64,000 bases of DNA, taken from contig OZ243916.1 in assembly GCA_965213675.1 (NCBI GenBank), positions 2,400,001 through 2,464,000 of the forward strand. Direction: 5' to 3'. This document shows, piece after piece, positions 1,464-22,727 of the stretch; position 1 is the stretch's first letter; each line of letters begins with the position of its first letter. Both the position numbers and the translations under genes were made by a program. The stretch comes from an uncultured Candidatus Binatia bacterium (GTDB lineage Bacteria > Desulfobacterota > Binatia > UBA9968 > JAJDTQ01). A model generated the notes under the pieces. The model worked only from the letters and a program-made list of their open reading frames with translations, searched no databases and was not told the origin of the DNA.

Positions 1464-4400
1464 CCGATGGCCTTGGCTATAGAGTCCGGCTTCGACACAT
1501 CGATAACGCAGACGGAGATCTTGCGGCGCTCCTCGGGGGAGAGGTTCGCGACAGCAATGAGTTGGTTGCGCAGGGCGGAAGGGGTTTCGGGCGCAGGCCC
1601 GGTCGGCGGCCGCTTGCACCTGTCGCGCCCGAACCAGAACACCAGGTAGATGCCGTACCCGGCCGCTCCCGAATCCCGCGTGTACTTCTCGATCAACTGG
1701 CCGCGGATGGCTTTCCAAAGATCGTCGTGCGAGCTCTTCTTGATCTCGGCCGGTACGTTAAAGCCGTTGCACAAGACGCAAATGTCTGCTCGTTTATCGT
1801 CGGCGTAAGCTCCTTCGGGCTGGGCATAGACGCCTTTTGGCGCCAGTCTTTGTTTCAAATCGGACAGCAGCGCATCGCGGCAAGCGTCTTCGGGCTTCGG
1901 GTCTTGAGCCCTGTTGTATGAATCTACGTTCCAGTACTGTCGCCAGTCCGATGTGTTTCCGTCGCGAATCTCCCTTTCCAAGCTGCCCAGCACGTCCGCT
2001 GTCAAGGCCGCCAAGTCGGCTGCATTCGCCGGACGTTGGTTGGCAAGAGTCTCCAGCACCTGTCCGACCGACGGGGGGCTGAAGTAGGCTTCCCGGCGCA
2101 CGTCCCGCTGCCGGCTCAGTGCGTCCCGTAACTTGAGCTGCCAGGGACGTAGCGTGTCTTCGTTGGACAGGCGTTCGAGTGCGGCCGTGGCCTGGCGGTC
2201 CGGTCTCGAAGACAGTGCATTGATCAGTAGTGAGTCAACGATGACACCCGTGTAAGCCGAATCTTTCGCAGCAGTGTTCCCCGTCATCCCCGAACCGTTG
2301 CCCGGCCAACTCAAGGGGCGGTACGAATTGCCAAGGGATTCGATGAGCAGCTCCAATGCGGGGATGTCCAGAACGTCAAGGGACGGGACGTCAAGGGCGT
2401 ACAGGAACGCAGCGACGTGCCTCACCCGCCGTTCGCACCCCCGTCCGCCGAGTTCTTGTCGCAACCGATCAACGAAGAGCGCCGGTTTCAGAAGCAGGCC
2501 GGCGCATATCCAGTACATCTCCTGCGAGGCGTCCATGCTCTGGAGCTTGAGCTTGTTCTCCACGATCCGCAGCAAGGCGTTCTTGTCGGCATGACGGGAT
2601 GCGACGTGTAGCAGTGCCTTCAGCACGTGAAGTTGCTCCAGCTTCTGACGGGTGGGGAAGGATTTCAGTAACGGCACGACTACCATCTCGGCAACCGTTT
2701 GGTAGTCGTCGTCGTGCCCCAATGCATGAAGACCGAGACCCGACTTCGCGCCCCGCCGCAGGTCGGCGCGAACGGATCGGATCAGCACCTCGGCCACCAA
2801 GTCGGGGCGGGACCGCAACACGGACCGGTACCACTTCGGTTCCTGGTTCCAGAAATCCGGCGCCTTGAAACGAAAAGCCAAGGCCCGGCGCATGCCTTGC
2901 TCGTCGAGCGGCGCCTTGCCGGGTCGAAGTGAAGGGATCTCGTCCAGCCCCGCGAGAAACGGCAACATCAGGAAATGATGCTCTTGCTTGTCCGCGAGGC
3001 GAAATATCTCGGCCATTTCGGGCAGGTCTGCTCGTGCCGTCGAGGCCCGGAATGCATGGATTGTCAGATCCACCAAGTCGTCATTACCCAGCAGGTCTCG
3101 AAGGCGAGTTCGCCCATCGGCGCCTTGTACGTCAACGAACTGGCCGAGGTACGCGGATGCCAAACGGTGCAGCAGCGCCGGGGCTGCCCGGTTCTCTCGT
3201 ATCGCCGACTCGTGGTCCTCTACGAGGTCACGCCACTCCCGACGGCGTTGCCCTGCTTCGGCCTCGCGCCTCTGCTCCAATTCGCTCTGTTCGGACTCAA
3301 TGTCGGAAATCGAACGTCTGCGACTTTCTTGTAGCGCCTTGTACTTGGCGACCAGGCTTGGATCATGTGCCAGACGGTCTTCAACGACTTCGCAGAAAAT
3401 TCTCTCGCCGTCCTGCCGGGCGATGACGTTGTCCAGAAAGAACTCCGTGGCCGCCGCCGTGTTCCGCTCCGTCTCGAGAGCTTGGCTGAGACACCATGCG
3501 CCGAAGTCTGATGGCTCCACCGCCAAGAAAAGGCGCCTGCGCACTTCGTCGCCGAGTTGATGTGAGCCGGCAGAGTGGTCCGCGGCCACACGGACCAAGG
3601 CCTTGTAGGACGAGGAATGGTCGCTGAGCCATGCACGGATAGAGGCTCGGGCATCGTGGCTTGCCTCCTCGGCCGCGAGTCCAAGCCAAACAAACAAGCG
3701 TTCGTGGTCAACCGTGGACGAGATCTCAAGGTACGCGACGAGAAGTTTGCCCGGAATCGTACGTAGCCAGTAGGACGCGGGTGCGCCGTCGTGGGTCTCT
3801 CCCAACTCCTCAACGTTCTCGATCAGCGAATCCAGGACATCGGCAAGCTGGTGGGAGTCCGTGGATTGCTCGATGATGTCGTGGTTCCAGAAGGCAGCAT
3901 ACGACGCGAAGACGGCGCTCTTTCGTTCCCGCAAGAATCGGCCGACTTCGGCAGGCGGGAGCAGCTTCGGAAAGAGCCTTTTCAACAAGAGCCCGAGGAG
4001 ATTGTCCAGAGGATCGGGCACAACTCCCTCATAAACATCGGCCAGCAGGGCCTTCAGGTTCTCCTGTGCCTCATCGTCGTTGCGGGACTGCCACACAAAG
4101 GCTTCAAGCGCTGCATCTCTGACGGCGGGCCAACAACCGCCGTCCCTGACGACATCCAGCAGCATAGGGGCAAGGCCTGGAATGATAGCGCCGCGCTCAA
4201 GCGACCTGAGCACGGCTAGCGCTACCGTCTGTTTCCCCATGCTTCCTTCCGCGCCCGTAAGGATTTCCCGGAACGTCTCCGCCATGTCCGGCGTGGCAAG
4301 GTCCGCCCATCGAGAATCCAGATCATGCATTGCGCCAAACACCCGGGGGTCGCGTTCTGCGTCTTGCTCCAGGCAGCTTAGCAACAAGCGCTTGTCGGAG

Positions 4401-5527
4401 ACGGAGAAATCTCTCACGTCGCCGTACAGGACGGTGCCCAAAGGATCCCGCTCTATGATCTCACTGCGGGCTGTTCCGCAATGGGCGGCAAGCCAGGCGG
4501 CCAAGCCGCGAAATGCCGAAACAATTTGACCATCATCGCCGGTCAACAAGGCAAGCACCCGTCGTACCGGGAGACCATCATCGACAAGACGCGAAAGGTG
4601 CCGCCCCGCCAGAAACTCGGCGACGTGCCTGTGGACGGGTCTGGCCAATCCGTCGATGACGTCGAATAGCTTGGTGCGCAGCGCGGCCAGCATAGTCTTC
4701 TGGTCTGGTTCCGGAATGTCCCGCAAGTCGATGTAACTGGCGGAATCCTCGGCAGTCATGGGTTGACGAAAACCCGTCAGGCCGGTCAGCAGTTGCATGG
4801 CGCACAGACGGTCTGCCGTGCGAAGCAACTCTGAATCGGCTCCTTGGGGAACCGCCTGCAGGTGCTCTTGATTGAGTTCGCGGATCAGTTTTACGCACGC
4901 TGCTTCGAATGTCCCTTTTCGCGTTGCTGGCCAGTTGCCATCGCCGACCGCATCCGCCAGCAACCTCAGGGTTTCAGGGTTCGACAGCAGCCCTCCAAGC
5001 CCGCGGTCCCTCGCTTCGTCAATGAAGCCGTCGATATCTGCGACGCCTTTCCCACCCAATATCTCGCGGACGTCATCTTCTGACAGAGGATCCAGGCGCA
5101 GGACCATGACCACGCCGTCGCGGGATACCGACTCAAGGCGCGTCCGGTCTGGCGCTCCGAACCAGTCCGCTTCCCGACAAGAGAGCCGGAACCGGGGCCG
5201 TCCCAGTCCGTCGAGTTTCCCTCGGATCACGTCAAGCGGAGTTCGCCCGTCTGTCTGTCCAGCCCGCGCCTCGTCCAGGCCGTCGATGAACAGCGTCTGC
5301 AGGCCCGCCCAGCGCTTGCAGTCCAGGCTCGTGAGGTCGCGAACGTCGCAAAACTCTTGCTGTCCGGCCTCGTGCTTGAACGCTTCTGTCTTGCCTGCGC
5401 CAGGCGCTGCCAACAGTACGTAGGCGCTGCAACCGCGAAAATCGGAAAGTGGCCGGGACAGGGTTTGACCTGTGACGCCGTCCTGATCCGCAACTACCGT
5501 ACAGGTGCGGTCAACGTAGCTGTCCAT
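1460..5527 (-). CDS. Large NACHT/STAND-like NTPase with C-terminal PD-(D/E)XK-like nuclease domain
   Basis: N-terminal Walker A AAPGAGKT, Walker B LFIDGLDE and LSCR motif; long helical middle; C-terminal DKRADI..VPAEIKK..GIYLVFWFG. ATG at 5527 overlaps the upstream TGA (TGATG). Confidence 0.78.
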   Translation of the reverse strand: MDSYVDRTCTVVADQDGVTGQTLSRPLSDFRGCSAYVLLAAPGAGKTEAFKHEAGQQEFCDVRDLTSLDCKRWAGLQTLFIDGLDEARAGQTDGRTPLDVIRGKLDGLGRPRFRLSCREADWFGAPDRTRLESVSRDGVVMVLRLDPLSEDDVREILGGKGVADIDGFIDEARDRGLGGLLSNPETLRLLADAVGDGNWPATRKGTFEAACVKLIRELNQEHLQAVPQGADSELLRTADRLCAMQLLTGLTGFRQPMTAEDSASYIDLRDIPEPDQKTMLAALRTKLFDVIDGLARPVHRHVAEFLAGRHLSRLVDDGLPVRRVLALLTGDDGQIVSAFRGLAAWLAAHCGTARSEIIERDPLGTVLYGDVRDFSVSDKRLLLSCLEQDAERDPRVFGAMHDLDSRWADLATPDMAETFREILTGAEGSMGKQTVALAVLRSLERGAIIPGLAPMLLDVVRDGGCWPAVRDAALEAFVWQSRNDDEAQENLKALLADVYEGVVPDPLDNLLGLLLKRLFPKLLPPAEVGRFLRERKSAVFASYAAFWNHDIIEQSTDSHQLADVLDSLIENVEELGETHDGAPASYWLRTIPGKLLVAYLEISSTVDHERLFVWLGLAAEEASHDARASIRAWLSDHSSSYKALVRVAADHSAGSHQLGDEVRRRLFLAVEPSDFGAWCLSQALETERNTAAATEFFLDNVIARQDGERIFCEVVEDRLAHDPSLVAKYKALQESRRRSISDIESEQSELEQRREAEAGQRRREWRDLVEDHESAIRENRAAPALLHRLASAYLGQFVDVQGADGRTRLRDLLGNDDLVDLTIHAFRASTARADLPEMAEIFRLADKQEHHFLMLPFLAGLDEIPSLRPGKAPLDEQGMRRALAFRFKAPDFWNQEPKWYRSVLRSRPDLVAEVLIRSVRADLRRGAKSGLGLHALGHDDDYQTVAEMVVVPLLKSFPTRQKLEQLHVLKALLHVASRHADKNALLRIVENKLKLQSMDASQEMYWICAGLLLKPALFVDRLRQELGGRGCERRVRHVAAFLYALDVPSLDVLDIPALELLIESLGNSYRPLSWPGNGSGMTGNTAAKDSAYTGVIVDSLLINALSSRPDRQATAALERLSNEDTLRPWQLKLRDALSRQRDVRREAYFSPPSVGQVLETLANQRPANAADLAALTADVLGSLEREIRDGNTSDWRQYWNVDSYNRAQDPKPEDACRDALLSDLKQRLAPKGVYAQPEGAYADDKRADICVLCNGFNVPAEIKKSSHDDLWKAIRGQLIEKYTRDSGAAGYGIYLVFWFGRDRCKRPPTGPAPETPSALRNQLIAVANLSPEERRKISVCVIDVSKPDSIAKAIG

Positions 5528-6783
5528 CACGTCTTGAACCAGTCGTCTGCCGGAGTCGACAGGAACTCTTCCAACGGCACGCCGTCGCCGCCGACCACCT
5601 CGGCGTTCACTGGATGAAATTGCTCGCGGAAGCGTTGAAGCCCTCGGCGGTCAGCAGGCCCCTCACCACTCTTGACCTCGAACGCCACCAACCGCGGCCC
5701 TCTTTCAAGCACGAAGTCCACCTCGGAGCCGTTTCGCCGCCAGTACCAGAGGCGAGTCAGCGTGGTCGCGGTGTTCCACAGGTGGGCGCCGACGGCGCTC
5801 TCGACCAGATGTCCCCAGAACGTTCGGTCCGCACGGGCTTCTTCGAACGTGTAACGGGAGAGGGCTGACATCAGGGCGGTGTTGAGCACGTTGAGCTTCG
5901 GGCTGGAAGCCTTGTATCGATCGATTCCAGCACTGTAGTTTTGCAAGCCTGCGATGAGACCCGCCTTTTCCAGCAGGTCCAGATAGCGCGCCAGGGTTGT
6001 GGTGTTGCCTGCATCCTGAAGTTGACCCTGTATTTTCCTGTAGGACAGAATTTGCCCGGAGGATGTGGCACCGACCTCGAACAGCCGTTTCATCAACGCG
6101 GGCTTGTCCACTCGTTGCATAGCAAGGATGTCGCGCTCGATATTGGGCTCTATAAGTCCGCGCACAATATACTCGTGCCAGCGATCATGATCGTGCATGT
6201 ATTCCACCGCACCCGGATAGCCGCCGAAGTAGACATATTCATCCACGTCCAAGCCGAACGCCTCCGACATTTCGGTGAAGGACCAGTGCTTGAGTTGAAT
6301 GGACTCGAAGCGTCCATGCAAGCTCTCGGTCAGACCACGCTGCATCAACAGTGGCGCCGAGCCTGACAGGATTACATGCAAACGGCGTCGCTCGTAGCGG
6401 TCTGCATCCCAGAGGCCTTTTACGGCTTCCGACCAGTTCGGCACCTTCTGAATTTCGTCCAGCGCCAGCACATACCCTCGCTCCGACCGGTCGGCGTCCA
6501 GTCGGGCCTTTTCCCACAAGTCCACGAGCCATCTCGTGTCGGGTTCTCGTGGCACCGGGTTTGTGGCCGTCGTATCGAGCGCTGTTGCTGTGGTGGGCAA
6601 GTATCTCGATCCGGGCTCATCCACGCGTACGAGCAGAAGGGCGCGGTCGAGCTTTTCCTTGGCCTGTTCAATCACCGTGGTCTTGCCAGCTTGTCGTGGC
6701 CCGGCGATCAGGATCAACCGCCGCGGAGGCTCGTGCAAACGGCCGAGAAGAGTGTCAAGCTGGTGCCGTGCAAAGGATGCCAT
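5527..6783 (-). CDS. AAA_14-family ATPase with DUF4143 C-terminal domain
   Basis: GPRQAGKTT, LDEIQK, SGSA, GGYPG and C-terminal YWR..SEVDFV..AFEVKSG. Confidence 0.88.
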   Translation of the reverse strand: MASFARHQLDTLLGRLHEPPRRLILIAGPRQAGKTTVIEQAKEKLDRALLLVRVDEPGSRYLPTTATALDTTATNPVPREPDTRWLVDLWEKARLDADRSERGYVLALDEIQKVPNWSEAVKGLWDADRYERRRLHVILSGSAPLLMQRGLTESLHGRFESIQLKHWSFTEMSEAFGLDVDEYVYFGGYPGAVEYMHDHDRWHEYIVRGLIEPNIERDILAMQRVDKPALMKRLFEVGATSSGQILSYRKIQGQLQDAGNTTTLARYLDLLEKAGLIAGLQNYSAGIDRYKASSPKLNVLNTALMSALSRYTFEEARADRTFWGHLVESAVGAHLWNTATTLTRLWYWRRNGSEVDFVLERGPRLVAFEVKSGEGPADRRGLQRFREQFHPVNAEVVGGDGVPLEEFLSTPADDWFKT

Positions 6784-6791
6784 TCTACAAT

Positions 6792-6827
6792 ACTATTCTA
6801 TTGAGCAAATTTGCTCAATAGAATAGT
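6792..6827. promoter_or_regulatory. Perfect 36-bp AT-rich palindrome overlapping a probable leaderless sigma70 promoter of the AAA_14 gene
   Basis: ACTATTCTATTGAGCAAA|TTTGCTCAATAGAATAGT; the minus strand reads TTGAGC-17 nt-TAGTAT-6 nt-ATG(6783). Confidence 0.7.
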
Positions 6828-7263
6828 CCGAGCCACTGGATTGTATGTTTGATCCTAGTTGAAACCGGGAACCGGCCGAAACGTACCGGTCGGCTGGGCC
6901 TGATGGTCTCGCCGGGTAGCGGCCGAGAACAACCGCTATGGCAGGAAACGTTAACAGAGCCCGAAATCACGCTCCATGCTCTTCGGTTCCAGATTGTATG
7001 GGCGGTGAGGCGGGTGTAACGGGACGCCGCGGCCGGCGGCGACGCGGTGGGCCGCAACACCCTGTAGCCACGGCTGGCGGCGCTGCGGCCGGCGGTTCCG
7101 TAGCGGTCGATACCGGCTTGCCGTCGTCGCGAGGATGCAAACACGCGCGTATTGAATTTCCACCGGACTCGGCGTAATGTACGCCAAACGCGACAGGCAA
7201 TGACCGGCAGAGGTATGGGCAGCGCGGGCCAGCGGGTCGGGCGACAGCTTCGGAGGCGATGCG

Positions 7264-10200
7264 ATGGTCATGGTGAACGAAGGACGAGATGGGAACCGGG
7301 CGTTGGGCAGGAGGCATGGGGAGATAGCGGGGCGCGCGGAAAATAGTTTGGCTCAGGACTTGACAAGGCCTGAGTCAACCCATAATCGCCGGATCGCCGG
7401 ATCGCCGGATCGCCGGATCGCCGGATCGCCGGATCGCCGGATCGCCGGATCGCCGGATCGCCGGATCGCCGGATCGCCGGATCGCCGGATCGCCGGATCG
7501 CCGGATCGCCGGATCGCCGGATCGCCGGATCGCCGGATCGCCGGATCGCCGGATCGCCGGATCGCCGGATCGCCGGATCGCCGGATCGCCGGATCGCCGG
7601 ATCGCCGGATCGCCGGATCGCCGGATCGCCGGATCGCCGGATCGCGCTTGGTGCGTCTTCATGGTGGCGCCGTCTAGGGCGCTCCGCCTCCCGGCCTGAA
7701 TCTTCCGCATCCGCCCGCGGGCGTTCCGACACCCGCCGGCCCGCTTCCTCTTCCGACAGCTTCGCTCCCTCTCCCGCCCGCGCCGCGGCGGGCGCCCGTG
7801 CCGCCGCCCGCAATCTGCGGCGTGGCCTGCTGCCGGCCCTGCTTTGCCTGCCGCTGCTGTTCGGCCTTGCCGCCCCGGCCGCCGCACAGACGACACCGAC
7901 AATCTCCCCATCGACGCTGATCGAGGAAGGGAGCCGCGGTCGTCTCGGGATCGGTGTGACTATCAGCAATATCCCGTCGAGTTGGGTTGCTCCCATTACG
8001 CACTCGCTGACGACGACCGGCACCGGCACCGGTCACGCGACGCTCGCCTCAGGCGTTTGCCGCGATGTAGACACCTTAAATACCTCGTTAGACGCCTACG
8101 ACGTATGCGACGACGAAGGCACAGGCTACAGCTCGGGCTCGAACCTCTACACTCTCGCACTTAGGGCGAGCATCGATACTCACTCGGATTCGGGCGAGAC
8201 CTTCACGGTGACGCTGACGGACTCGTCGACGCCGCGGAATACCGTTTCGTTCACAATGACGATCAACGATCCGCCGGTGAGGATCGGGGTGTCGCTGCCC
8301 GACCAGGAGGGCGTATCCCGCGTCGGCGGCAATCAGCCCCATGAGGAGAGCACGGGCAGCGTTGTGTTCGACCTGAGCGCCGACGAGCCGCTGGCGAACG
8401 ATCTGACGGTGTGCGTGCGGGTGAGCGAGAGCGGCGGCAACCGGGTGACCTCGGGCAGGGGTATCCGGACCGCGACCCTGCTGGCCAGCGGCGTCAGCAA
8501 CGGGTCGGGCAGCTACACGGTCAACTGGACCGACACCGCCGCCGACGACCCGGACAGCACCGTCATCGTCCGGGTAGTGCCGCCGGAGGAGGCGGGCTGC
8601 TCGGCGACCGACGGCAGCTACGGGGTATCCGGTGACGACCCCTTGGATACGATTCTCATCCAGGACGACGAGGACACCACGGTCTCGCTCACGAGTTCGG
8701 ACAGGACCATGACCGAGGGCGACGCCTCGGACACGGCGACCCTGACGGTCTCGCTGGATCGCCGGCTTTATGGCGGAGAGACAATCGGCGTGCCGATCGC
8801 GCTGGCGTCGACCACCGGGGCGCGGCTGCCGGGGAGCGTGGACGGCGGCAGCACCGCCAACCACGACTTCACGGTCGCGGCCGCGGCCGGGAGCGGGCAC
8901 AGCGGGGTGACGCTGGCGAACGCATCGACGGCCAACCCGCGGGTGGTCTTCACCGGCCACGACAGCAACACGGTGCAGACGGCGACGGTAACGCTGACCC
9001 CGGTGGCGAACCGCGACGACGGCGACGCGGCCCATGAGACGATCACCGCGACGCTGAGCTCGCTCGGCCTGGTTGACACGACGGTAAGCGGCGGCGTGGC
9101 GGCGCATGGGACGAACAACGCGGCGACCCTGACGCTGGCGGACGACGAGGCCGCGCCGCCGCCGGTGACATGCTCCGCCCAGAACCCCATCTTCAATGAT
9201 ACCAGCCTTCGCATCCTCGAGACCGGCGAAACGACCTATTGCGTGCGCCTGACGACCGCCCCGTCCGGCGGTGACACCACCGTCACCATCGGCAGGATTG
9301 GCGGGGGCGCGACCGTCAGTCCCGCGTCGCTCACGTTCACGTCATCGAATTACGAAACACCCCAGCAGGTAACGGTGACCGGCATGGATGAGCCCGGTTC
9401 GCATCGGAATCGCACGACGCAGTTGACCCACACGGCCAGCGGCGGCGGCTATTCGAGCCAGAACCTGGGCCGTGTCCGGGTAGAGGTGGACGACGCGCCC
9501 GAGGTCGAGGCGTATTGGTACATCAAGGGCGGCGCGGGCGGCGTGCGGATCCGGCGACCGCATACGATAACGTCAACGCCCGGGCTGACGCCGTGGCAGA
9601 ACGCGGCACCCGGCGACAGGATATCCTATGCCGTGCGCCTGTCGAACCGCCCGGAGCCGGGCGGCACGGTGACCGTGATGGCGACGGTGCCTTCGGACAA
9701 GCGGAACCTCGTCGGCCTGTCGCTGACCAAGGACCGCGCCGCGCAAGACACGGTGACGGTGGAGTTCAAGGACCGCAGTCCCGGCGCAGGCACGGGCTGC
9801 AGCAACTGGTTCGGCCATCAAGCGCATCAATACTTCGACAGCCACGGCAACACGCGGACAGTGTCGGGCCGGCAGCCGAGCGAGAGCTACGACGGCACGG
9901 CGGACACGCCCTGGGAGTGCTGGCGCATGATTTATGTGGTCCGCAAGGACGCCTCGCGGAACATCGACGACACCTGCGCCGACATCACCCACACCGCCAC
10001 AGGCGGCGGCGTGCGCAAGGTCACGGTCGATACGATCCGCGCCCATGTAAGGAACCCGTCGCGCAACAGGCGGGGGTCAAGCGGTTACAACACCCAATGC
10101 CGCAACCTGACCGGCAACACGCAAGCGGCACCCGCGACGGCCGCCCCGGCGCCCACCGAGGCGGTGGCCAACCTGCAGGTGACGGCGGTGGACGACGCCA

Positions 10201-13200
10201 GCGCCAGCGTCACCTGGGACGCGGTGGAGCATGCCACCTCCTATGACGTGTCGTGGAGTGCCGAGAGCGGCGACTCGCTGAACGCTTCCGCCGGTGACTT
10301 GCCCGGCGTGACAGGCACCACGACCACCATCGACCACGGCGCCTCGGTGCCGATGACACTGACGGTCACGGTGACGCCGGAATATGTCGACAAGAACGGC
10401 GACACGCAGCAATTGGACAGCCTCGCCGGCACGGCAACCCTGGCGGTAGGGCCGGGCAGCGACGCGCTGAGCGCCAGCGCGCAGAGCACCGACAGCCAGG
10501 CGCCGGCCTGCGTCTCCGACGCCCTGCTGGCCGACGCCCGGAAGGCTGCGGGCGAGACCTGGCGGACGTCGCCGGGCCATGTCGAGCGCTGGAGCCGGGT
10601 GCTTGCCGCCTTCGGGGAGAGCAACGCCTGGAGCAACAACCCGATGACCATCGCCGAGGCGCAGGCGCAGGCGGACCGCGGCCTGAAGCGCTGGGCGCCG
10701 GTGGCGCCGGCGCTGGAATGCCTGGAGAAGGAGCCGGCGCAGGCGAAGGCGCAAGTAGAGGCGCAACAGGCGGTTCCCGCGATCACCGTAACCGCGGGAG
10801 CGGGGGTGACGGAAGGCACGGCGGCGGGCTTCACGCTCAAGGCCGATCCGGCGCCGGCGGAAGAACTCGCGGTGACGGTGGCGGTGGCCCAGACCGGCGC
10901 CATCGCGGATGCCTCGGCGCTCGGCGAGCGCATTGTGACGATCCCGGCCGGGAAGGCGGAGGCGGCCTTCACGGTGGCGACGCTGGCCGATGAGACCGAC
11001 GAGCCGGCGGGCGCCGTCACGGCGACGGTGAGCGACGGCCCCGGCTATACGGTGGACGACCAGGGCAAGAGCGCAAGCGTGGCGGTGGCGGACGACGACG
11101 CCACCGCGGTAGTGCTGACGGCGCCGGATGGCGACCTGCCCGAGGCGTCGGGCTCCAAGACGCTGACGCTGACGCTCGGGCGGGCGCTGGTGGAGGGCGA
11201 GAGCCTGTCGGTGCCGCTGGCGCTTGCCGGCACGGCCACGCTCGGCTCCGACTACACGCTGGCCGCGCCGGAGACGGCGCCCGCGGGCGTGACCTATACC
11301 CACCTTGGCGGTACCGACCCGAAGAACCCGCCGGAGGTGACCTTCGCCGGCGCCGCGGGGCGCAAGTCGGCGACAGCGGCGACGCTGGTGCTGGCGACGG
11401 TGGCGGACAGCGTGGCCGAGGGCGAGCGGGAGACGGTGACGGTGAAGCCGGGCACGCCGGTCGCCACCGGCCTCGGCGGCGGGGCGGCGGCCTCGGGCGC
11501 GGCCGGCTTCGCCATCCTGGAGCCGCCGCCGGAGATCGCGATCGCGGCGAAGACCGGGACCGTGGCAGAGGGCGCGGATGCCGCCTTCACCCTGACCGCG
11601 AGCCGGGCCCCCGGCGCGGACCTGACGGTCAACCTCACGGTCTCGGAGCCAGACGGCAGCGACTTCGTGGCAGCCGAGCATGAAGGGACCACCACGGCGA
11701 CCATGCCGAAGGGGGAGACCGAGGCCACCTTTACGGTGCCGACGGTGAACGATGTGGCGGACGAGCCCGGCGGGACGGTGACCGCGACCCTTGCCGGGGA
11801 CGGCGACAAGGGACTGCGCTACACGGTGGCAGCGGCGCCGGACAATGCGGCCTCCGTGAAGGTGACCGACGACGATGCGGCGGCGACAGCCCCCACCTTC
11901 TCGGTGGGCGACGAGACCGCCAACGAGGATGTCGGGTTGATGTATTTCACGGTGCGGCTCGACCGGGCCGTGCAGCAGGCGGTGAAGGTGACCTTCACGG
12001 CGCGCGAGGCGAGCCCGGTCTCGGCCCGGCAGGGCGAGGACTGGTTCTGGTGGTGGCCGAACGGCATCGCGCTCACCTTCCATCCGGGCCAGACCGAGAA
12101 GCGGATGTGGGTCTACGTCTACAACGACAATCACGACGAGGACCCGGAGACCTTCGAGGTGGCGCTGTCGAACCCGACGGGGGGCACGGCCATCGGCGAC
12201 GGGGTTGCGGTGGGCACCATCGTCAACAACGACCCGATGCCCAAGGCGTGGCTGAGCCGGTTCGGCCGCACGGTGGCGCAGCAGGCGCTGGACGGCATCG
12301 CGAGCCGGATGAGGGCGCCGCGGGAGGCGGGCGTGCAGGGCACCCTGGCGGGACAGGCGCTGCCGGACGGCAGCACCGCTTCCCAGGAAACCGGGTCCGG
12401 CCCGGGATGGCAGACCGCGGCCCATGACCACGCGGCGCCCGGAGCCCGGGCCACGGGCTTTACCGGCGGCGTCCAGGACGGCGCCGAGCCAGGGACCGCT
12501 TCAACATGGAGAGCCCTGAGCTTGCGGGAACTCATGCTCCAGAGCCGCTTCACCGCCACCGGCGGCAAGGACGCCAAGGGCGGCAGCCTGGCCTTCTGGG
12601 GGCGGGCCGCGCAGGCGCACTTCGACGGCAGGGAGGGAACCTTCTCCCTTGACGGCGACACCACCACCGGCATGCTCGGGGCGGACTACGCCCGGAACCG
12701 CTGGATGGCCGGCCTCGCCCTCACCCACAGCGAGGGGGAGGGCGCCTATGCGGACACGGACACGGCCCCTGAACCCTGCGCCGAAGCCGGCGCGGACCAC
12801 ATGAGCGACGATGCCAGTAAGGTTCTGTGCGAAGGCGCCGTGCGCGAGGGCGACGGCAGCCTCGACGCCTCGCTGACCGCGGCCATACCCTACGCCTCTT
12901 TCCAGGCCACCGAGCGGCTGAAGCTCTGGGGCGCGGCAGGCTACGGCGCCGGCGCGGTGACCCTCAAGCCGGAGGTCGGCGGCGTGTTCAAGTCGGACGT
13001 TTCCTGGACCATGGCGGCGTTGGGCTTCCGTGGGAACCTGTGGCCCCCGCAGAAGCAACGCTCCGGGCCGGCGCTGGCGCTTGAGTCGGACGCGCTCTGG
13101 GCGCGCACCTCTTCGGAGAAGACCCGGGACCTCGCGGCCTCGGACTCCGATGTGACCCGGCTCAGGCTCGGTCTGGAGGGAAGCTGGAAGATCGCCCTGG

Positions 13201-13790
13201 ACCAAAACGGCCATCTGACGCCCAGGCTCGAAGTGGGCGCGCGCCATGACGGCGGCGATGCCGAGACCGGCACGGGCATCGAACTCGGCGGCGGCATTGC
13301 CTGGAGCGACCCCGCCCTGGGCCTCCGCCTCGATGTCGAGGGCCGCACCCTGCTGGCCCACGGGTCCGATGATCTGGAGGACCGGGGCTTTGCCGCCTCC
13401 CTCGCCTACAACCCCGACCCGGCAACCACTCTCGGCCCCTCCCTGACTCTTCGTCAGGACTGGGGCGGACAGGCCAAAGGCGGCATCGACGCCCTGTTCG
13501 CCCCCGACCCCCTGGACACCCGCGGCGGCGCGGGCGGTACCGCCGAGAGCCGCTGGCTGGCCGAAGCCGCCTACGGCTTCCCGGTCCTCGACCGCCGCTT
13601 CGCCGCCAGCCCCCATCTAGGCTTCGGCTTCGCCGCCGGCACCCGCGACTACAGCCTGGGCTGGCGCTTCAACCCCCTGGCACGCAACAACGCCCCCGAT
13701 CTCCAACTCGGCCTAAACGCCACCCGAAGGGACGCCGCCCACTCAAAACCCGAACACATCCTCCGCTTCAAGGTCGCCCTCAACTGGTGA
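7264..13790 (+). CDS. Giant autotransporter-like surface protein (Calx-beta/FN3-like repeats, C-terminal beta-barrel), frameshifted at an 8-bp tandem repeat in its leader
   Basis: GGAGG-7 nt-ATG at 7264, leader homologous to the paralogue starting at 22727; signal peptide LLPALLCLPLLFGLAAPAAA|Q at ~7825-7890 is in the frame of the 7956-13790 ORF; Calx-beta-like DDD/DETDE/ETF motifs; MPKAWLSRFGRT linker; barrel ends FKVALNW. Confidence 0.8.
7385..7645 (+). repeat. Perfect tandem repeat (ATCGCCGG)x32 plus partial ATCGC
   Basis: 256 bp from 7385 to 7640 counted directly; no spacers. Confidence 0.98.
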
Positions 13791-13908
13791 CCTCCAAAAT
13801 GGCTTGGCACCCGCAACGCGTCCCGTCGGACTTGGCTGCGAGCACCCCGTGTTCGTGCGGCTACGGCCATTGAGGCGCTGTCGGTCAGGTCGATCACCTC
13901 CACGTCCA
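13701..13908 (+). repeat. Imperfect direct repeat, copy 1 (autotransporter 3' end plus downstream DNA); copy 2 at 23570-23758
   Basis: Shared ctccaactcggcct..cactcaaaacccgaacacatcctccgcttcaaggtcgccctcaactggtgacctc..tcggtcaggtcgatcacctccacgtcca. Confidence 0.9.
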
Positions 13909-14057
13909 TAGCGGGCGGCGCCCACGGGACGAACCGCCACGCCCATGCCGGCTGCGCGATGGCCTCCGCCCGCTCACGCGGACGCTCCCAGTAGTGGTTC
14001 AGGTCCGCCAGACGACGGGACGGTTCACTCGGTTCATTCCAGTATCGGATACGGGTC

Positions 14058-16934: not shown

Positions 16935-19900
16935 TCACCACCGCGCGTTGACTTCGAACCCGACGCTGTGCTCCGGCATGGCCGTGTCGCTCTCCCTGCG
17001 GGTCGCCTTCAGCCCGAAGGAGACATCGGGCGCGTTGGCGTTCGCCGCCGTGGTAAGGCGCCAGCCGAGGCTGTAGTCCCGCGCATCGGTGGCGAGGCCC
17101 AGCCCCATATGCGGGCTGCCGGTGAAGCGCCCCGAGAAGGCCGGGAAGCCCCAGGCCGCTTCCGCCGTCCAGCGGGAGGCGGCCTCCCCTCCGCCCATCC
17201 GGTCCGCCAGCGGGTCGGACGCGAACAGCGCGTCGAGCCCGCCCTTGGCCTGTCCGCCCCAGTCCTGGGTCAGCGTCAGCGAGGGACCGCGCGCGGTCGC
17301 CGGGTCGGGATCGAAGGCCAGCGAGGCCGCGAAGCCCCGATCCTCCAGATCGTCCGAGCCGTGCGCGACCAGCGTGCGGCCCGACAGGTCGAGCGACAGG
17401 CCGAGCGCCGGATCGACCCAGGCGAGCCCGCCGCCGAGTTCCACCCCGAAGCCGGTCTCGGCATCGCCCCCGTCGTGGCGCGCGCCTATTTCCAGCTTGG
17501 GTGTGAGACTGCCCCCGCCCTCGGTGGCGATGCGCCAGCTCCCCTCCAGGCCGAGCCGGAGACGGGTCACGTCGGACTCCGACGCCGCAAGCTCGTGCGT
17601 CTTCTCCGAGCTCGTCCGCGCCCACAAGGCATCCGAGGTCAGCGCCAGCGCAAGGCCGCTCCCTTCCCTCGACAGGGAAACAAGGTCGTTGCGAACCCCC
17701 GCCGCCGCCATCGTCCAGGCGATGTCGGAGCTGAGCGAGCCGCCCACCTCCGGCTTCAGCGTGACCTCGCCGGTGCCATGGCCCGCCGCGCCCCAGAGCT
17801 TCAGATGCTCGGACGCCTGGATCGCGGCATAGGGAACCGCCGCCGTCAGCGACGCATCCACCTTGCCGTCGCCTTCGCGGACGGCGCCGGCGCACAGATG
17901 CGCCATCGTGGCGGGGTCCATGCCCTCGCCAACATCCGGACAGTGCTGCGGCCCCGATTCCCTGTCGGCATAGCCGCCTTCCCCGCTGCTCCGCATCAGC
18001 GCCATGCCGACCAGCCAGTTGCCGCGCGCATAGTCCGCGCCCAGCATCGCCGAGGTCGCCTCGCCGTCGAGCGAGAACGTCCCCTCCCGTCCGTCGAAGC
18101 TCGACTGCGCCGCCCGGCCCCAGAAGGCCAGGCTGCCGCCCATGCCGTCCTTCTCCCCGGTCGCCGTGAAGCTGCTGCCCAGCAGAGCCTCGAGCCCGGT
18201 CATGGTGTACGAGCCCGCGCCGCCTGCCCCGGACACCGATCCGGTGGCGAAGCCATGAGCGTCATGGCCGATCGCGCCGCCGCCCCAACCGTCGGCGGAA
18301 GCGCCGAAGGCGCGGGCCACGTGGGAGCGTGCCGGCACGTCCTTGCCGGCAAGGCTGCCTGGTGCGGCATTGTCGTTCGCCGCCCCGGACCCGTCAGGGC
18401 TGCCGAAGCCGAGCGCCTGTCCGGCGATCGTGCCCTGCACCCCGGCGCCGCGCGAGGCCGCGATGCGCCCGGCTATGCCGTCCAGCGCCTGCTCCGCCGC
18501 CGTGCGACCGAAGCGCGCCAGCCACGCCGCCGGCATCGGGTCCGAGTTGGTGATGGTGCCCACCGCGACCCCGTCCGCAATCGATACCGACACCCCGGGC
18601 GGACCGTTCACGGCCGCGTCGAACAGCACCATCTCGAAGGTCTCCGGACCCTCGTCATGGCTGTCGTTGTAGAGGCGGACGTGGATCAGCGTTTCCGTCT
18701 GCCCCGGCCTGAACCGGGCCCGCAGCCGCCAGGACCGCTTCCACGCCAGGTAGTCCTGGCCCGCCACGGCCGACACCGGCGTCGAATCCCGCGTCGCGTA
18801 GTAGACATGGACCGGCCAGTCCACCGGCTCGCTCAACGTCACCTTGAAATTCCCCGTTATTCCGTTCTCCTTGAGCGTGGCATCGGCAATCGAGATCGTC
18901 GGACCCGAGGACGCCGCATCGTTGTCGGACACCGCCACCGTGGCCGCATTGTCCGGGGCGGCGGCCAGTGTGTAGCCGGCGCCAATGCCCAGGGTGGCGG
19001 TGATCGAGCCGTCCGGCTCGTCCGCGCCGTCGTCCACCGTGGCGACCTCCACGTCCACGCTGCCTGTGACCGGGACGGTGACCGTCCTCGACCCGGTCTC
19101 GCCCGAGGCGGCGAAATCGCCGCTCTGGCCGACGGTCAGCGTTACGTCGAGCGGTGCGACCGGCACCGGGCTCGCCGAGACCGTGAAGGAGGCCGACGTG
19201 CCTTCCGTCACCCCGCTGCCGGCGGCGATGCTCACCACCGGCTCGTCATTGTCGCGCACCGCCACCGCGGCGCTGCCCTTGCCCGTGGCCACGGTGTAGC
19301 CCGTGCCCGTGCCGAGGGTGACGCTCACCGACCCATCGGCCTCGTCCGCTGTGTCGTCCACCGTGGCCACCGAGAGTGCGACGCTGGTAGCCCCTGCTGC
19401 CAGTGTCACCGTCCGGCTGCCCGCGCCGGGGGCGTCCAGATACTCGCCGCTCTGGGCGACGGTCCAGGCAATCGTCAGGTCGGAATGCGGCGCCGGATCG
19501 GCCGTGACCGTGAAGGTGGCATTGCCGCCCTCGTCCACGGCGGAGCCCGCCGAAAGGCTGAGTTCGGGCGTGGCGGGTGTTACCGGCTGGACCTCAGCCT
19601 GTTCCGGCTGTTCCTCCTGCGGCGGGTTCGCCAGGCATTCCAGCGCCGGCGGCACGGGCGCCCAGCGCTTGAGGCCGCGATCCGCCTGCGCCCGCGCCTC
19701 GGCGACAGTCATCGGGTTGTTGCTGTAGGCGTTGCTCACCCCGAAGGCGGCAAGCACCCGGCTCCAGCGCTCGACATGGCCCGGCGAAGTCCGCCAGGTC
19801 TCGCTCGCAGCCGCCTGGGCGTCGGCAAGCAGGGCGTCGGAGACGCAGGCCGGAGCCTGGCTGTCGGCGCCTTGCGCGCTGGCGCTCAGCGCGTCGCCGC

Positions 19901-22727
19901 CCGGCCCCACGGCAAGCGTCGCCGTGGCGGCCAGCGCGTCGAGTTGCTGCACCGCGCCATTGCCGTCGATGTATTCCGGCGTCACCGTGACCGTCAGCGT
20001 CATCGCTTCTTGCGCATCATGCCGGATGGTGGCCGTAGTGCCGGTCACGCTCTCGACGCCGGAAACGGCGGTCTCGGAGCCGTTGGCATCCCATGACACG
20101 TCATAGGAGGTGGCATGTGCCACCGCGTCCCAGGTGGCGCTGGCGCTGGCGTCGTCCACCGCCGTCACCTGCAGGTTGGAGACCGCCGTGTCGGGCGCCT
20201 GGACCGCCGGCGCGTTGTTGCCCACGGGGCATAGCCCGTTATTGATCCGCACGCATTTGCTGCCCGGAGCCAGCCGGAACGGACGGCCGGTGGCCGTCAC
20301 CTTGAAGGTCACCGTGCCCGCCCCGGCGTCGTGCCGGATACTGATGGGCACCGTGAACTCGGAAAAGCCCCTATTAAGTGACTTGTAGCCCGACTTGCCC
20401 AGACCCTGCCTGCGGTTGTCATCGACCACCCCGCCGGTGTCCTCGACCTCCCACTTGACGTAGAGGCCGGTCGGCAGGGCGCCATTGACCGAAGTGATCG
20501 TGAATATCGCGCGGTACCGGCGGTCGCGCTTCGACGTGTCGTCATACCCCGACACCTTCAGAACGGGCAGGTCGTCCTTGATGGTGATGACCGTGCTGAT
20601 GGTCTCGTTGGCAATGCGGGTCGAGTCCGGAATCTCCAGCAGGGCCGTGGTCTCCTTGCCCGACACGGTGCTCCGCTGCAGCCGGATTTTCACCGACTCG
20701 TCCGGCTCGTCGCTGCTGCCGTCGTCGAACAGCGTCAGATCGAGGTAGGTGCCGAGTTGCCCCTTCGGCAGCGTCGCGGGGTGGCAGCCCGTCGTCGTGA
20801 CCTTCGTGCCGTCCTGGCCGACCAGCGTGTAGTCGTCGCCAAGCGTCGCCGAACCGCTCACACAGTACTCGAAATGCGCATCGACCTGCAGCGGCCGGTT
20901 GGGTATCGAGGAATGCGCAGGGGCCAGAGCGATCTTGATCCTGCGCCCGCTATCGACCCCGTCCCTCAGCACCGTCCCGCTCTCGTCGACCTTGAGCAGG
21001 GGCGTCGCTTCGTCGTCCTGGATGTATATCGTGATCCGGTTCGGCGAGCCCACCGCGTGGGTGCCCGTGCCCACCATCTCCAGGACCACCGTCTCGGTTC
21101 CCTCGATCAGTGTGTCCTCGATGACCGTGATCGGCAGCGACGCAAGCGTCTTCCCCTTCGCCAGCGTCATCGTGCCCCGGTTGTTGTTCCGGTTGTAGCC
21201 GCCGCGCAGGCGGTAGTCGGTGCCGTAGGTCGCCGTGCTCCCCCCGTCCTCATTCCCGGGTACCACCTGGTAGGTTACCGTGTTATCCCAGCCAGCCTGC
21301 GCCGAGAACGGGATGCCGACATCCTGATCGAGGGACGGTCTGCCTTCTCTCACGCCCGGTTTGCCGGCCCAGGTGCCGAAGGCAAGCGGCTGCTGGTGAT
21401 AATCGTCGTCATCGATCACCAGGGTCTGGCTTCTGAACACGCTGTCGATCCCGTAGGGTGAAGGGAGCGGCTTTACCGGGTTCGGATTCAGGGTGATTCT
21501 GACCGTTTCCTGCCCCGATATAACCAGCCGCTCCTGGCCGTCGATCCACATCGGCACCTGCTCGTGGTGGTTGTCGCCAAGCACCTGGATGCGGAACCTC
21601 TTCAGTTGCTGGTTGGCGGCGATGGACGAGTCGACGCAGCCACTGTTTCTGGTCTGCCAGGCGCTCCCCACCCGTTCCTGTATCAGATAATCGTCTTGCT
21701 CGGCATTGCCGCCGGTGCGTCGCCTGGCACTGCCGGAGAAGCACAGGCGGAAAGGCAGGGGAGACGAAGAGAGCTGTTCGGTCTTGACCTGGAACTCCAC
21801 ATTCTTCGGCGCTGAATCCGTCTCCTTCACGCATGTGTACGTTTTACTGCTGCCTCCACCAACAGAGCAGGTATCCTTGCCCCGGTCCAGCGAGAGCGAG
21901 AGAAACTGGTTTGCGGCCTTGATCGTGAATGTGGCGGAGAGGTCTGGAGGGAATGTGGCGTCGTTAATCTGCCCAAACCGAAGCAAGCCACTCCGAGTGC
22001 CTCCGGCGACAGTCACCGTCACCGGATCATCTGCCCTGATTAGCGAGCCGTGGTAAGCGAGGGTGATCTGCGCGGAGCGATGACTAAGGCTTCTGCCATG
22101 GGGGTGACCCGGCCGCTCTCGCCGGAGCAGCTTGCCGCTTGCGATCGTCAATCCCCGAGGGGCGCCCGACAATGTGATCAGGGCAAGACCTGCTGCGCTC
22201 AACCTGGCTTCGCCGTCCCTGAAGGGGATGGCTCCCTGGTCGTCCGGGTGAATATACTTCTGTCTGAAGGAGTCGGAGAGTTCAGTGGTACCGCCGCGGC
22301 CAGCTCCAAAAAACGTGGCGTTTTTCGGAATCAGTGTGATCGTTGCCCCGTGCAGAAAATGTGCCTGTATCTCGGTGGGAATGGTCTCCAGGTACGGCGC
22401 AGTCTGTGCCTGTGCACCAGTGGCGAGACTGAGCAGCACAGCGGCGAGACTGAACCGCAAATGGTGGATGGCAAAGAAATCCGCCAAAGCGCGGGCGGGA
22501 GACAGGCTGGAGCCGCCGGTGGCAGAAGGCTCAGGCCGGGAGGCTGGGTGCCCCGGGCGGCCAGCCATGCGAGCGCGCTCATGCCGGCGATCCGGCGATA
22601 TACCAAGGGGAGTCCCCTCAACCCTTGTCAACCCCTGCGCGAAACAATTTTTCGCGCGCCCGGCGGTGGCCGCAAGCGCTGCGCCCAGCGCGCGGATCGC
22701 ATGTTGTCCTTCCTTGAATATGGTCAT
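16935..22727 (-). CDS. Giant autotransporter-like surface protein with Calx-beta/FN3-like repeats (paralogue 2, intact)
   Basis: GGAGAG-ATG at 22727; extended leader then SLAAVLLSLATGAQA|Q; Calx-beta motifs (EDTLIEGTET, DDTADEADG); MPAAWLARFGRT; barrel ends FEVNARW. Confidence 0.88.
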   Translation of the reverse strand: MTIFKEGQHAIRALGAALAATAGRAKNCFAQGLTRVEGTPLGISPDRRHERARMAGRPGHPASRPEPSATGGSSLSPARALADFFAIHHLRFSLAAVLLSLATGAQAQTAPYLETIPTEIQAHFLHGATITLIPKNATFFGAGRGGTTELSDSFRQKYIHPDDQGAIPFRDGEARLSAAGLALITLSGAPRGLTIASGKLLRRERPGHPHGRSLSHRSAQITLAYHGSLIRADDPVTVTVAGGTRSGLLRFGQINDATFPPDLSATFTIKAANQFLSLSLDRGKDTCSVGGGSSKTYTCVKETDSAPKNVEFQVKTEQLSSSPLPFRLCFSGSARRRTGGNAEQDDYLIQERVGSAWQTRNSGCVDSSIAANQQLKRFRIQVLGDNHHEQVPMWIDGQERLVISGQETVRITLNPNPVKPLPSPYGIDSVFRSQTLVIDDDDYHQQPLAFGTWAGKPGVREGRPSLDQDVGIPFSAQAGWDNTVTYQVVPGNEDGGSTATYGTDYRLRGGYNRNNNRGTMTLAKGKTLASLPITVIEDTLIEGTETVVLEMVGTGTHAVGSPNRITIYIQDDEATPLLKVDESGTVLRDGVDSGRRIKIALAPAHSSIPNRPLQVDAHFEYCVSGSATLGDDYTLVGQDGTKVTTTGCHPATLPKGQLGTYLDLTLFDDGSSDEPDESVKIRLQRSTVSGKETTALLEIPDSTRIANETISTVITIKDDLPVLKVSGYDDTSKRDRRYRAIFTITSVNGALPTGLYVKWEVEDTGGVVDDNRRQGLGKSGYKSLNRGFSEFTVPISIRHDAGAGTVTFKVTATGRPFRLAPGSKCVRINNGLCPVGNNAPAVQAPDTAVSNLQVTAVDDASASATWDAVAHATSYDVSWDANGSETAVSGVESVTGTTATIRHDAQEAMTLTVTVTPEYIDGNGAVQQLDALAATATLAVGPGGDALSASAQGADSQAPACVSDALLADAQAAASETWRTSPGHVERWSRVLAAFGVSNAYSNNPMTVAEARAQADRGLKRWAPVPPALECLANPPQEEQPEQAEVQPVTPATPELSLSAGSAVDEGGNATFTVTADPAPHSDLTIAWTVAQSGEYLDAPGAGSRTVTLAAGATSVALSVATVDDTADEADGSVSVTLGTGTGYTVATGKGSAAVAVRDNDEPVVSIAAGSGVTEGTSASFTVSASPVPVAPLDVTLTVGQSGDFAASGETGSRTVTVPVTGSVDVEVATVDDGADEPDGSITATLGIGAGYTLAAAPDNAATVAVSDNDAASSGPTISIADATLKENGITGNFKVTLSEPVDWPVHVYYATRDSTPVSAVAGQDYLAWKRSWRLRARFRPGQTETLIHVRLYNDSHDEGPETFEMVLFDAAVNGPPGVSVSIADGVAVGTITNSDPMPAAWLARFGRTAAEQALDGIAGRIAASRGAGVQGTIAGQALGFGSPDGSGAANDNAAPGSLAGKDVPARSHVARAFGASADGWGGGAIGHDAHGFATGSVSGAGGAGSYTMTGLEALLGSSFTATGEKDGMGGSLAFWGRAAQSSFDGREGTFSLDGEATSAMLGADYARGNWLVGMALMRSSGEGGYADRESGPQHCPDVGEGMDPATMAHLCAGAVREGDGKVDASLTAAVPYAAIQASEHLKLWGAAGHGTGEVTLKPEVGGSLSSDIAWTMAAAGVRNDLVSLSREGSGLALALTSDALWARTSSEKTHELAASESDVTRLRLGLEGSWRIATEGGGSLTPKLEIGARHDGGDAETGFGVELGGGLAWVDPALGLSLDLSGRTLVAHGSDDLEDRGFAASLAFDPDPATARGPSLTLTQDWGGQAKGGLDALFASDPLADRMGGGEAASRWTAEAAWGFPAFSGRFTGSPHMGLGLATDARDYSLGWRLTTAANANAPDVSFGLKATRRESDTAMPEHSVGFEVNARW

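Follow-up and report, generated by a model that had tools for sequence, protein, structure and literature searches.

We analysed a stretch of 64,000 nucleotides (nt) from the genome of an uncultured Candidatus Binatia bacterium (contig OZ243916.1, positions 2,400,001 to 2,464,000; hereafter the window), in which the assembly contains 32 exact full units of the octamer ATCGCCGG on the forward strand (positions 7385-7640, located by regular expression) ahead of a gene for a giant adhesin-like autotransporter, which we call locus A. The tract lies between a candidate start codon, ATG 7264, which is preceded by a GGAGG motif, and the body of this gene, and its copy number would set the frame in which ribosomes coming from that start read the body. 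We see about an even chance that the tract is a slipped-strand contingency switch acting on translation, with the gene OFF at n = 32 units. An octamer-based contingency locus in its OFF state had already been proposed in an initial annotation of this DNA; copy-number variation, selection on the gene and closed wrong frames now give that proposal comparative support, which falls short of proof.

The octamer tract and the two frames it separates

Tandem Repeats Finder delimited the array at 7385-7645 (period 8, 32.6 copies, 100% matches, score 522), with the partial unit ATCGC following the 32nd full unit on the forward strand and ending at 7645. The best of the other 8-base arrays that the program found in the window had 2-3 copies, and chance is far from enough to account for the origin of a perfect octamer tract of 256 bases. 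The length of the unit is not a multiple of three, and the tract is free of stop codons in all three frames, each of which encodes one and the same peptide, (RRIAGSPD)n. A search of positions 6800-8100 against Rfam gave no match at E <= 1.

Upstream of the tract, a Shine-Dalgarno (SD)-like GGAGG (7252..7256, +) stands 7 nt before ATG 7264, and the leader frame that this ATG opens (MVMVNEG..., 7264..7384, +) comprises 40 codons and one further base ahead of the repeat. The corresponding open reading frame (ORF) crosses the repeat and ends at TAG 7675-7677 after 137 amino acids (aa), which places the repeat, as far as can be told from sequence, inside a putatively translated leader. The body frame is open from stop to stop over 2134 codons (7386..13790); its upstream side is closed by TAA 7383-7385, its first ATG, GTG or TTG is GTG 7956, downstream of the signal peptide, and the body-frame stretch before the signal peptide (IALGASSWWRRLGRSASRPE..., 7641..7811, +) contains none of these codons. 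The distance from 7264 to 13790 is 6527 nt, and subtraction of 8 leaves a single ORF of 2172 aa, such that the two frames join with one unit fewer (n = 31) or two more (n = 34) into an ORF of at least 2172 aa. The values given in the initial annotation were confirmed, as was every coordinate in it: the 32 octamers, the frame from ATG 7264 stopping at 7677, the frame arithmetic with its product of 2172 aa, the TAA at 7383 and the lack of an ATG, GTG or TTG ahead of the signal peptide.

Just past the repeat, both frames other than that of the body are closed by stops hidden within body codons. The first, TAG (7675..7677, +), is contained in CTA-GGG and terminates the leader frame at n = 32, and the second, TGA (7697..7699, +), is contained in CCT-GAA and closes the third frame. 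The two lie 34 and 56 nt past the repeat, and after them the respective frames run on for 80 and 154 codons before the next stop. An ATG-initiated frame of 12 codons (7661..7699, +), one base off the body frame, also ends at this conserved TGA. In the database relative P0001 an in-frame start ATG has been called at about the position of 7661, as placed by an alignment of peptides (MAARLRRCASRPE versus SSWWRRLGRSASRPE, at the peptide level only). We considered and rejected a programmed +1 frameshift out of the ATG 7661 frame at GCC-TGA-A, a motif that is equally conserved in relatives needing no frameshift and has no SD-like stimulator upstream.

The body frame begins, as read by eye, with a signal-peptide-like segment (NLRRGLLPALLCLPLLFGLAAPAAA, 7812..7886, +) that is likely cut before Q (7887); the candidate Sec signal itself was read as RRGLLPALLCLPLLFGLAAPAAA, followed by this Q, ahead of the passenger. 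A Calx-beta passenger (Pfam, E 1.1e-8) and a C-terminal autotransporter beta-barrel occupy 7887..13790 (+), including the stop codon at 13788-13790. The barrel matches the Autotransporter beta-domain PF03797 with an E value of 7.6e-11 and 42.7 bits (cut-off 26) over residues 59-285 of the translation of 12420-13787. The product is an autotransporter with a barrel of type Va.

Copy number and selection across the gene family

The ATCGCCGG tract is found at four places in the genome, each time after a homologous leader and before a paralogous giant autotransporter gene. Beside locus A, these are locus B (C1:3050133, 11 units), locus C (C1:800363, 45 units) and paralogue D (16935..22727, minus strand), which has the same leader and 2 units at 22584-22599. 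BLAST added two paralogues, E and F, for a family of six copies in the genome. In E, which lacks a repeat, the leader ATG shares its frame with the signal peptide; in F, the same site is occupied by another octamer, (GTCGAGCC)x8 (C1:~1134040-1134110). The leader of A is homologous to those of the paralogues (72-99% DNA identity). In D, the homologous leader ATG (22727) is in frame with the body (1930 aa), in agreement with the initial annotation, which had described this paralogue as having exactly 2 units and a leader in frame. The survey of paralogue leaders that was suggested there thus returned tracts of 2, 11, 32 and 45 units together with a different octamer.

Two of the paralogues show further peculiarities. 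F has a GTG start two codons ahead of the LRR position, and its expression may be independent of its own repeat. C is the sole copy of the genome with a tract (45 units) in phase with its leader, and its body changes frame after 512 codons, about 1.5 kb in (C1:~799300-799340, minus strand). Two occurrences of AACATCGGC(G/A)TG at this spot, some 30 nt from each other, point to a small duplication.

Loci with nearly or fully identical flanks differ in copy number. A and C share 298 of 300 upstream bases, with n = 32 and 45; L147 and L151 of genome G049 are identical at 300 of 300 bases on both sides, with n = 17 and 42; and A shares 287 of 301 upstream bases with its orthologue in a sister species (G012), with n = 32 and 21. 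The comparative signature is that of a tract that is hypermutable relative to its flanks.

The comparison of A with the G012 orthologue also bears on whether the gene is maintained. Past the repeat, the two bodies are open for 2049 and 2024 codons, and 1698 of 2011 aligned residues are identical. Synonymous divergence (dS) is 0.20 and the ratio of non-synonymous to synonymous divergence (dN/dS) is 0.51 overall, rising by region from 0.155 (signal peptide) through 0.20 (C-terminal passenger) and 0.27 (barrel) to 0.62-0.68 (variable head). Neither gene has a canonical start, and since this start-loss state is common to both, the loss is older than their split and the body has been kept since then. 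By this measure, the startless body of A is under purifying selection and is not dead. Of 20 distinct loci of the family, 8, from five genomes, have such a startless body, with no ATG, GTG or TTG between the repeat and the hydrophobic core. The body-frame stretch before the signal peptide shows an excess of third-position differences in some pairs (A-C 9/6/17).

These data also speak to a quite unlikely explanation, namely that A is a silent or decaying copy that has lost its start, is not expressed from this locus, and persists because the loss is recent or because it serves as a recombination donor. Silence would fit with several observations: startless orthologues form 17 public clusters, every one of them out of phase; the in-phase paralogue C is frameshifted about 1.5 kb into its body; and long tracts are also seen on truncated remnants (L154 with its 49 units, L043, L086, L140). 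It would also fit with the near-identical 5' regions of paralogues whose bodies differ (298/300 versus 229/310), a pattern that suggests gene conversion. On the other hand, A and G012 have the start loss in common, and since the split (dS 0.20) more than 2000 codons have stayed open in either body, with 13 and 38 gap positions in the protein alignment and dN/dS of 0.2-0.27 in the conserved parts. Moreover, a near-universal OFF state of an intact phase-variable autotransporter has a precedent in autB, where only 2 are in frame among 104 intact genes (PMC5118866).

Within the genus, at least three units were found in 2 of 41 genomes searched (G000 included) and leader DNA was matched in 3 of 28; the sister species G012 carries the 21-unit orthologue of A, and G022 a repeat-less relative. 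A scan of a species-representative collection for three units yielded at least 105 stretches, mostly three-unit matches in unrelated GC-rich genomes, and a subset of the stretches shares one layout, in which TTGACA, a spacer and TATA are followed by the repeat, a conserved stretch and a signal peptide. With the post-repeat DNA as a query on eight of those genomes as well as on G012 and G022, further members were found, with the units ATTGCCGG, GTCGCCGG, ATCACCGG, ATCGTCGG, AGCCG and CCGGATG. In total, at least 8 other assembled genomes have the same layout, with units of 8, 7 or 5 bases. Tracts of 7-49 units are the rule in this family, in at least 10 genomes, which argues against the earlier idea that the tract of A expanded from a 2-unit seed; the 2-unit copy is equally likely to be a contraction.

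Eleven unit sequences occur at this site, and none has a length that is a multiple of three. Seven octamers are found in assembled genomes (ATCGCCGG, ATTGCCGG, GTCGCCGG, ATCACCGG, ATCGTCGG, GTCGAGCC and GGCTTGAG), with GGCTTGAG in only 2 copies (L143) and ATCGTCGG in 49; an eighth, GGACGCCG, was seen only in loose contig ends of public runs, at the same junction. The remaining units are CCGGATG (7 bases), AGCCG (5 bases) and CCAG (4 bases; loose contig ends). Several of the octamers are one base apart and hence not independent. Among the five members with at most 2 units, the leader ATG is in frame in four (D, E, G022 and the remnant L140), while the leader of the fifth, L148, terminates on ATGA. 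L148 (G051:C1:~3726300) is repeat-less and has a run of about 10 G within its leader frame, a homopolymer that may stand in place of the octamer. L154 (G051:C1:~2329400) has its 49 copies of ATCGTCGG before a degenerate remnant without a signal peptide; given that long tracts persist on such dead copies, tract length alone is no proof of function.

The unit itself is widespread. In the sequencing runs X1-X4, the summed word depth across the repeat (7606-7659) was ~42,000-144,000 compared with ~700-14,000 in the flanks, that is ~8 to 100 times the flank depth, and the very abundant unit is presumably present at many loci. The unit alone is not diagnostic, since many unrelated GC-rich genomes, among them those of Streptomyces and Burkholderia, have at least three ATCGCCGG copies with no adhesin layout around them.

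Proposed translation through the repeat and its alternatives

An SD-like motif with an ATG that opens a frame continuing into the repeat was present at 14 of 20 loci (one locus per leader type or genome), compared with a mean of 0.174 in composition-matched shuffles. Of the six loci not counted, three show, by eye, a start at GTG, a GGGG motif, or a start that falls outside the 180-nt window of the count. The leaders themselves differ greatly in sequence across the family. At 16 of the 20 loci both wrong frames are closed no more than 75 nt after the repeat, with a median of 53 nt from the repeat end to the first stop and of 243 nt from the first to the second. The first of these positions is occupied by TAA, TAG or TGA in relatives, and the hidden stops of the family lie within the body codons CTA-R and CCT-GAN; both codons are rare in this genome, CTA accounting for 3.1% of Leu codons and CCT for 13.1% of Pro codons. 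The repeat-less relative in G022 has CCC GAT at the site of the second stop, and hence no stop.

Relatives that possess a start after the repeat (M-S-x-x-A-W-R-R...) have ATGA there, without an SD-like motif, in 7 of 7 cases identified by script, and the same was true of nine further post-repeat starts read by eye. At three loci, B (n = 11), L067 and L059, it is exactly on this ATGA that the leader frame terminates, an arrangement that, on paper, is the classical layout for termination and re-initiation. Public gene calls also include fused leader-repeat-body proteins of the startless type (for instance P0005, P0010 and P0020). Taken together, the leader frames with SD-like motif and ATG, the close stops and the SD-less ATGA starts suggest that ribosomes cross the repeat.

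In the proposed switch, ribosomes would begin at ATG 7264 with its SD-like motif, translate a short, poorly conserved leader and then cross the tract, where every 8-base unit gained or lost would shift the downstream frame by one step. With n mod 3 = 1, the leader would be fused to the pre-signal-peptide stretch and the signal peptide and the autotransporter would be made, with a cut after AAA leaving an identical mature protein for any n. In the other two phases, ribosomes would meet one of the two conserved hidden stops and no product would result, because the body has lost the start codon typical of the family. The in-phase copy number is not the same in all paralogues: owing to the 7 bases CTTGGTG (7647..7653, +), which read CTTCCTG in G012 and are missing from paralogue C, it is n mod 3 = 1 here and 0 in C. 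A third outcome can be envisaged for relatives with an SD-less ATGA just past the repeat, in which the leader would end on the start and re-initiation would be possible. We infer for this scheme that transcription comes from upstream of 7264 and that the leader is translated, that tract length switches within populations, and that the precursor is exported despite its long N-terminal extension.

A broader version of this scheme, which we put forward tentatively and regard as possible but doubtful, would make the repeat the moving part of a translational device of a giant adhesin family in many uncultured lineages. Here, n mod 3 would decide between fusion, a stop on the SD-less ATGA with re-initiation, and discard at a hidden stop. 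Units of 4, 5, 7 or 8 bases, never of a multiple of three, would have taken the place of the repeat on several occasions, and in lineages that have lost the ATGA, as A has, a dial with three levels would have become a strict on/off switch.

Several observations weigh against a switch that works through the reading frame. The phases are unbiased: by eye, the leader is fused at 3 of the 15 startless loci that have one (C, L071 and L058), with 5 expected, and the ATGA-coupled phase was seen at 4 of 10 loci with a start; neither proportion departs from one third. Among public sequences, none of the 17 orthologue clusters without a usable start (about 8 lineages) is leader-fused; all are called from within or after the signal peptide, and three other calls have their own ATG. 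Nor is the leader peptide conserved (3 non-synonymous versus 1 synonymous difference between A and G012, by eye), and the stretch before the signal peptide has a dN/dS of 0.74 in the same pair. Paralogue F has a TGA in its leader frame just before the repeat, and an N-terminal extension of about 180 residues ahead of a Sec signal peptide is unusual. Finally, TTGACA and TATAAT, the latter completed by the first repeat unit, are conserved as DNA even where the leader frame differs (L044) and look like a promoter downstream of the leader ATG. Ahead of the leader, no promoter is convincing: the blocks conserved in that region (TTGAAT-N17-TAATGT in A; TTGCCT-N16/17-TACGGT in D and relatives) fall below the scan thresholds. 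A pairing of the leader SD motif with a conserved downstream CCTCC was likewise rejected, as it extends over 7 bp in A and merely 4-5 bp in other members (by eye).

The conserved hexamers, which like the ATGA starts of relatives go unmentioned in the initial annotation, are central to the main alternative, one that we consider rather unlikely, in which TTGACA...(C/T)ATAAT is a promoter and the repeat a variable, untranslated 5' leader whose frame is irrelevant. Transcripts would start in the first units and n would tune the level or the translation of the mRNA like a 'volume knob', in the manner of hmw1A. At locus A, TTGACA (7360-7365, +) is separated by a 15-nt spacer from CATAAT (7381-7386, +), the last two bases of which belong to the first unit. 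Retention of both hexamers as DNA in nearly all members, whatever the leader frame, would be expected of such a promoter, and leader peptides lacking protein-level conservation, the absence of a phase bias towards fusion and the start codon that most relatives have 2-35 nt past the repeat point in the same direction. Octamer repeats in a putative adhesin promoter have also been published (PMC3309571). However, the spacers measure 15 nt here and 19-32 nt elsewhere (modes 20 and 23) as opposed to the usual 16-18, and a scan of the plus strand of 6800-8000 called no sigma-70-type site. Locus A and 7 others of the 20 loci have no canonical start past the repeat, yet the body of A is under purifying selection. 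Furthermore, the last 10 units together with 220 nt of following sequence fold worse than shuffled sequences (minimum free energy -129.9, mean over shuffles -145.7, z = +2.99; none of the 200 shuffles folds less well), with only 4-bp CCGG helices within the repeat and no hmw-like hairpin. The hidden stops, the SD-less ATGA starts and the leader frames with SD-like motif and ATG would be left unexplained.

The spacer between TTGACA and TATAAT often contains a short palindrome of varying sequence and register, such as TGAGGGG..CCCCTCA, GTGCTGA..TCAGCAC or GGAATC..GATTCC. A conserved RNA hairpin at this place was rejected, the palindromes standing in different registers among members (by eye).

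Constitutive initiation at a non-canonical codon, either CTG 7815 or another near-cognate codon, would make expression independent of repeat number, and the initial annotation had named a start at CTG ~7815 as a finding that would refute the switch. The codon (7815..7817, +), immediately followed by RR and the hydrophobic core, corresponds in position to a TTG in D and E and to an ATG in G022, and may mark the site of an ancestral start. That objection has lost weight, and we now regard the explanation as very unlikely: the codon is CCG in the G012 orthologue and in the paralogue L128, T7816C is frequent in the short assembled contigs of 4 of 4 runs of one study (compared over 7606-8400), no SD-like motif lies upstream, and the stretch ahead of it shows, in some pairs, the third-position excess in the body frame noted above.

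It is very improbable that the assembly simply miscounted the units and that the gene is ON with a true n of 31 or 34. Long perfect repeats are error-prone in assembly and a mixed population yields a consensus, but the chromosome-size contig of 3.97 Mb carries three other tracts of different lengths, and independent assemblies likewise place the G012 orthologue and 12 other startless loci out of phase.

The region upstream of the adhesin gene contains, in divergent orientation, an AAA ATPase gene with a DUF4143 domain (5527-6783, minus strand; E 3.6e-31) and an ORF of 1356 aa (1460-5530, minus strand) that has no Pfam match.

Relation to known repeat-driven switches

Repeat-driven phase variation is textbook knowledge for a few host-adapted pathogens. 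In Neisseria opa (CTCTT) and Haemophilus influenzae lic1 (CAAT), repeats in the 5' coding region switch translation on and off, and in lic1 alternative starts in different frames give rise to graded states. In contrast to the locus described here, opa and lic1 are small genes with short units, and they lack a leader frame of their own followed by hidden stops. To our knowledge, descriptions of repeat-driven phase variation in uncultured bacteria, be they environmental or symbiotic, are scarce. Our literature search found no publication that joins sponge, symbiont, autotransporter and phase variation, and among the publications listed by a further search none mentions sponge symbionts.

The closest known relatives of the proposed mechanism are autA and autB of Neisseria meningitidis and their Haemophilus homologues, which have AAGC repeats in the region coding for the autotransporter signal sequence (PMC5118866). 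In these genes, as at locus A, the product is an autotransporter, the unit is not a multiple of three, copy number sets the frame, and the tract lies just past the start codon, before or within the export signal. Tracts there reach 40 units and most of the genomes sampled are OFF, as shown by the 2 in-frame cases among 104 intact autB genes. Several differences set the present locus apart. Its unit has 8 bases instead of 4; its tract follows a 40-codon leader and precedes the signal peptide core by ~57 codons, for an extension of ~180 residues in the ON state; both wrong frames contain conserved stops, and relatives have a second, SD-less ATGA start. In addition, the hosts are uncultured bacteria here and human pathogens there.

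A different use of long units is known from the hmw adhesins. H. influenzae hmw1A and hmw2A have (ATCTTTC)n in the 5' untranslated region (PMC12721329), and in H. influenzae biogroup aegyptius the octamer GCATCATC is present in 12-15 copies in the presumed promoter region upstream of hmwA (PMC3309571). Both cases resemble locus A in that a long repeat of 7- or 8-base units directly precedes the gene for a giant secreted adhesin, near promoter-like hexamers, and in that copy number varies between strains. The untranslated hmw repeat is reported to pair with a G-rich arm into a long hairpin that is cut by RNase III, with a graded fall in expression as n rises (PMC12721329). No such hairpin is predicted here; instead, a frame with SD-like motif and ATG crosses the repeat, and A has no start past it. 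In view of autA/autB (PMC5118866) and of published octamers ahead of an adhesin gene (PMC3309571), the initial view that the tract arose in a gene family not known to phase-vary needs revision.

A third comparison is offered by pil1 of Streptococcus gallolyticus, where GCAGA repeats in an upstream leader-peptide gene are coupled to transcription attenuation (PMC3894217). There, too, the repeat is located in a small leader before an adhesin gene, and the frame or length of the leader decides on downstream expression. In the published account, ribosomes destabilise a premature terminator hairpin, whereas the leader at locus A could fuse to the gene itself; we found no terminator-like site in 6800-8000, and thus no premature terminator of the pil1 type. 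The type of mechanism is therefore already known from autA/autB, and the octamer, the leader, the hidden stops and the SD-less second start are what set this locus apart.

What is at stake is a family, with six copies here and more in at least 10 other genomes, in which very long tracts, of up to 49 units, occupy one conserved site. Gene callers place the starts of these genes past the signal peptide (17 public clusters), and the proteins consequently appear non-secreted or truncated in annotations. The hidden stops and the ATGA start outline a concrete, testable design by which a leader frame would gate a downstream gene. Family-wide tracts of this kind would imply that these bacteria vary their surface stochastically, in a pathogen-like manner.

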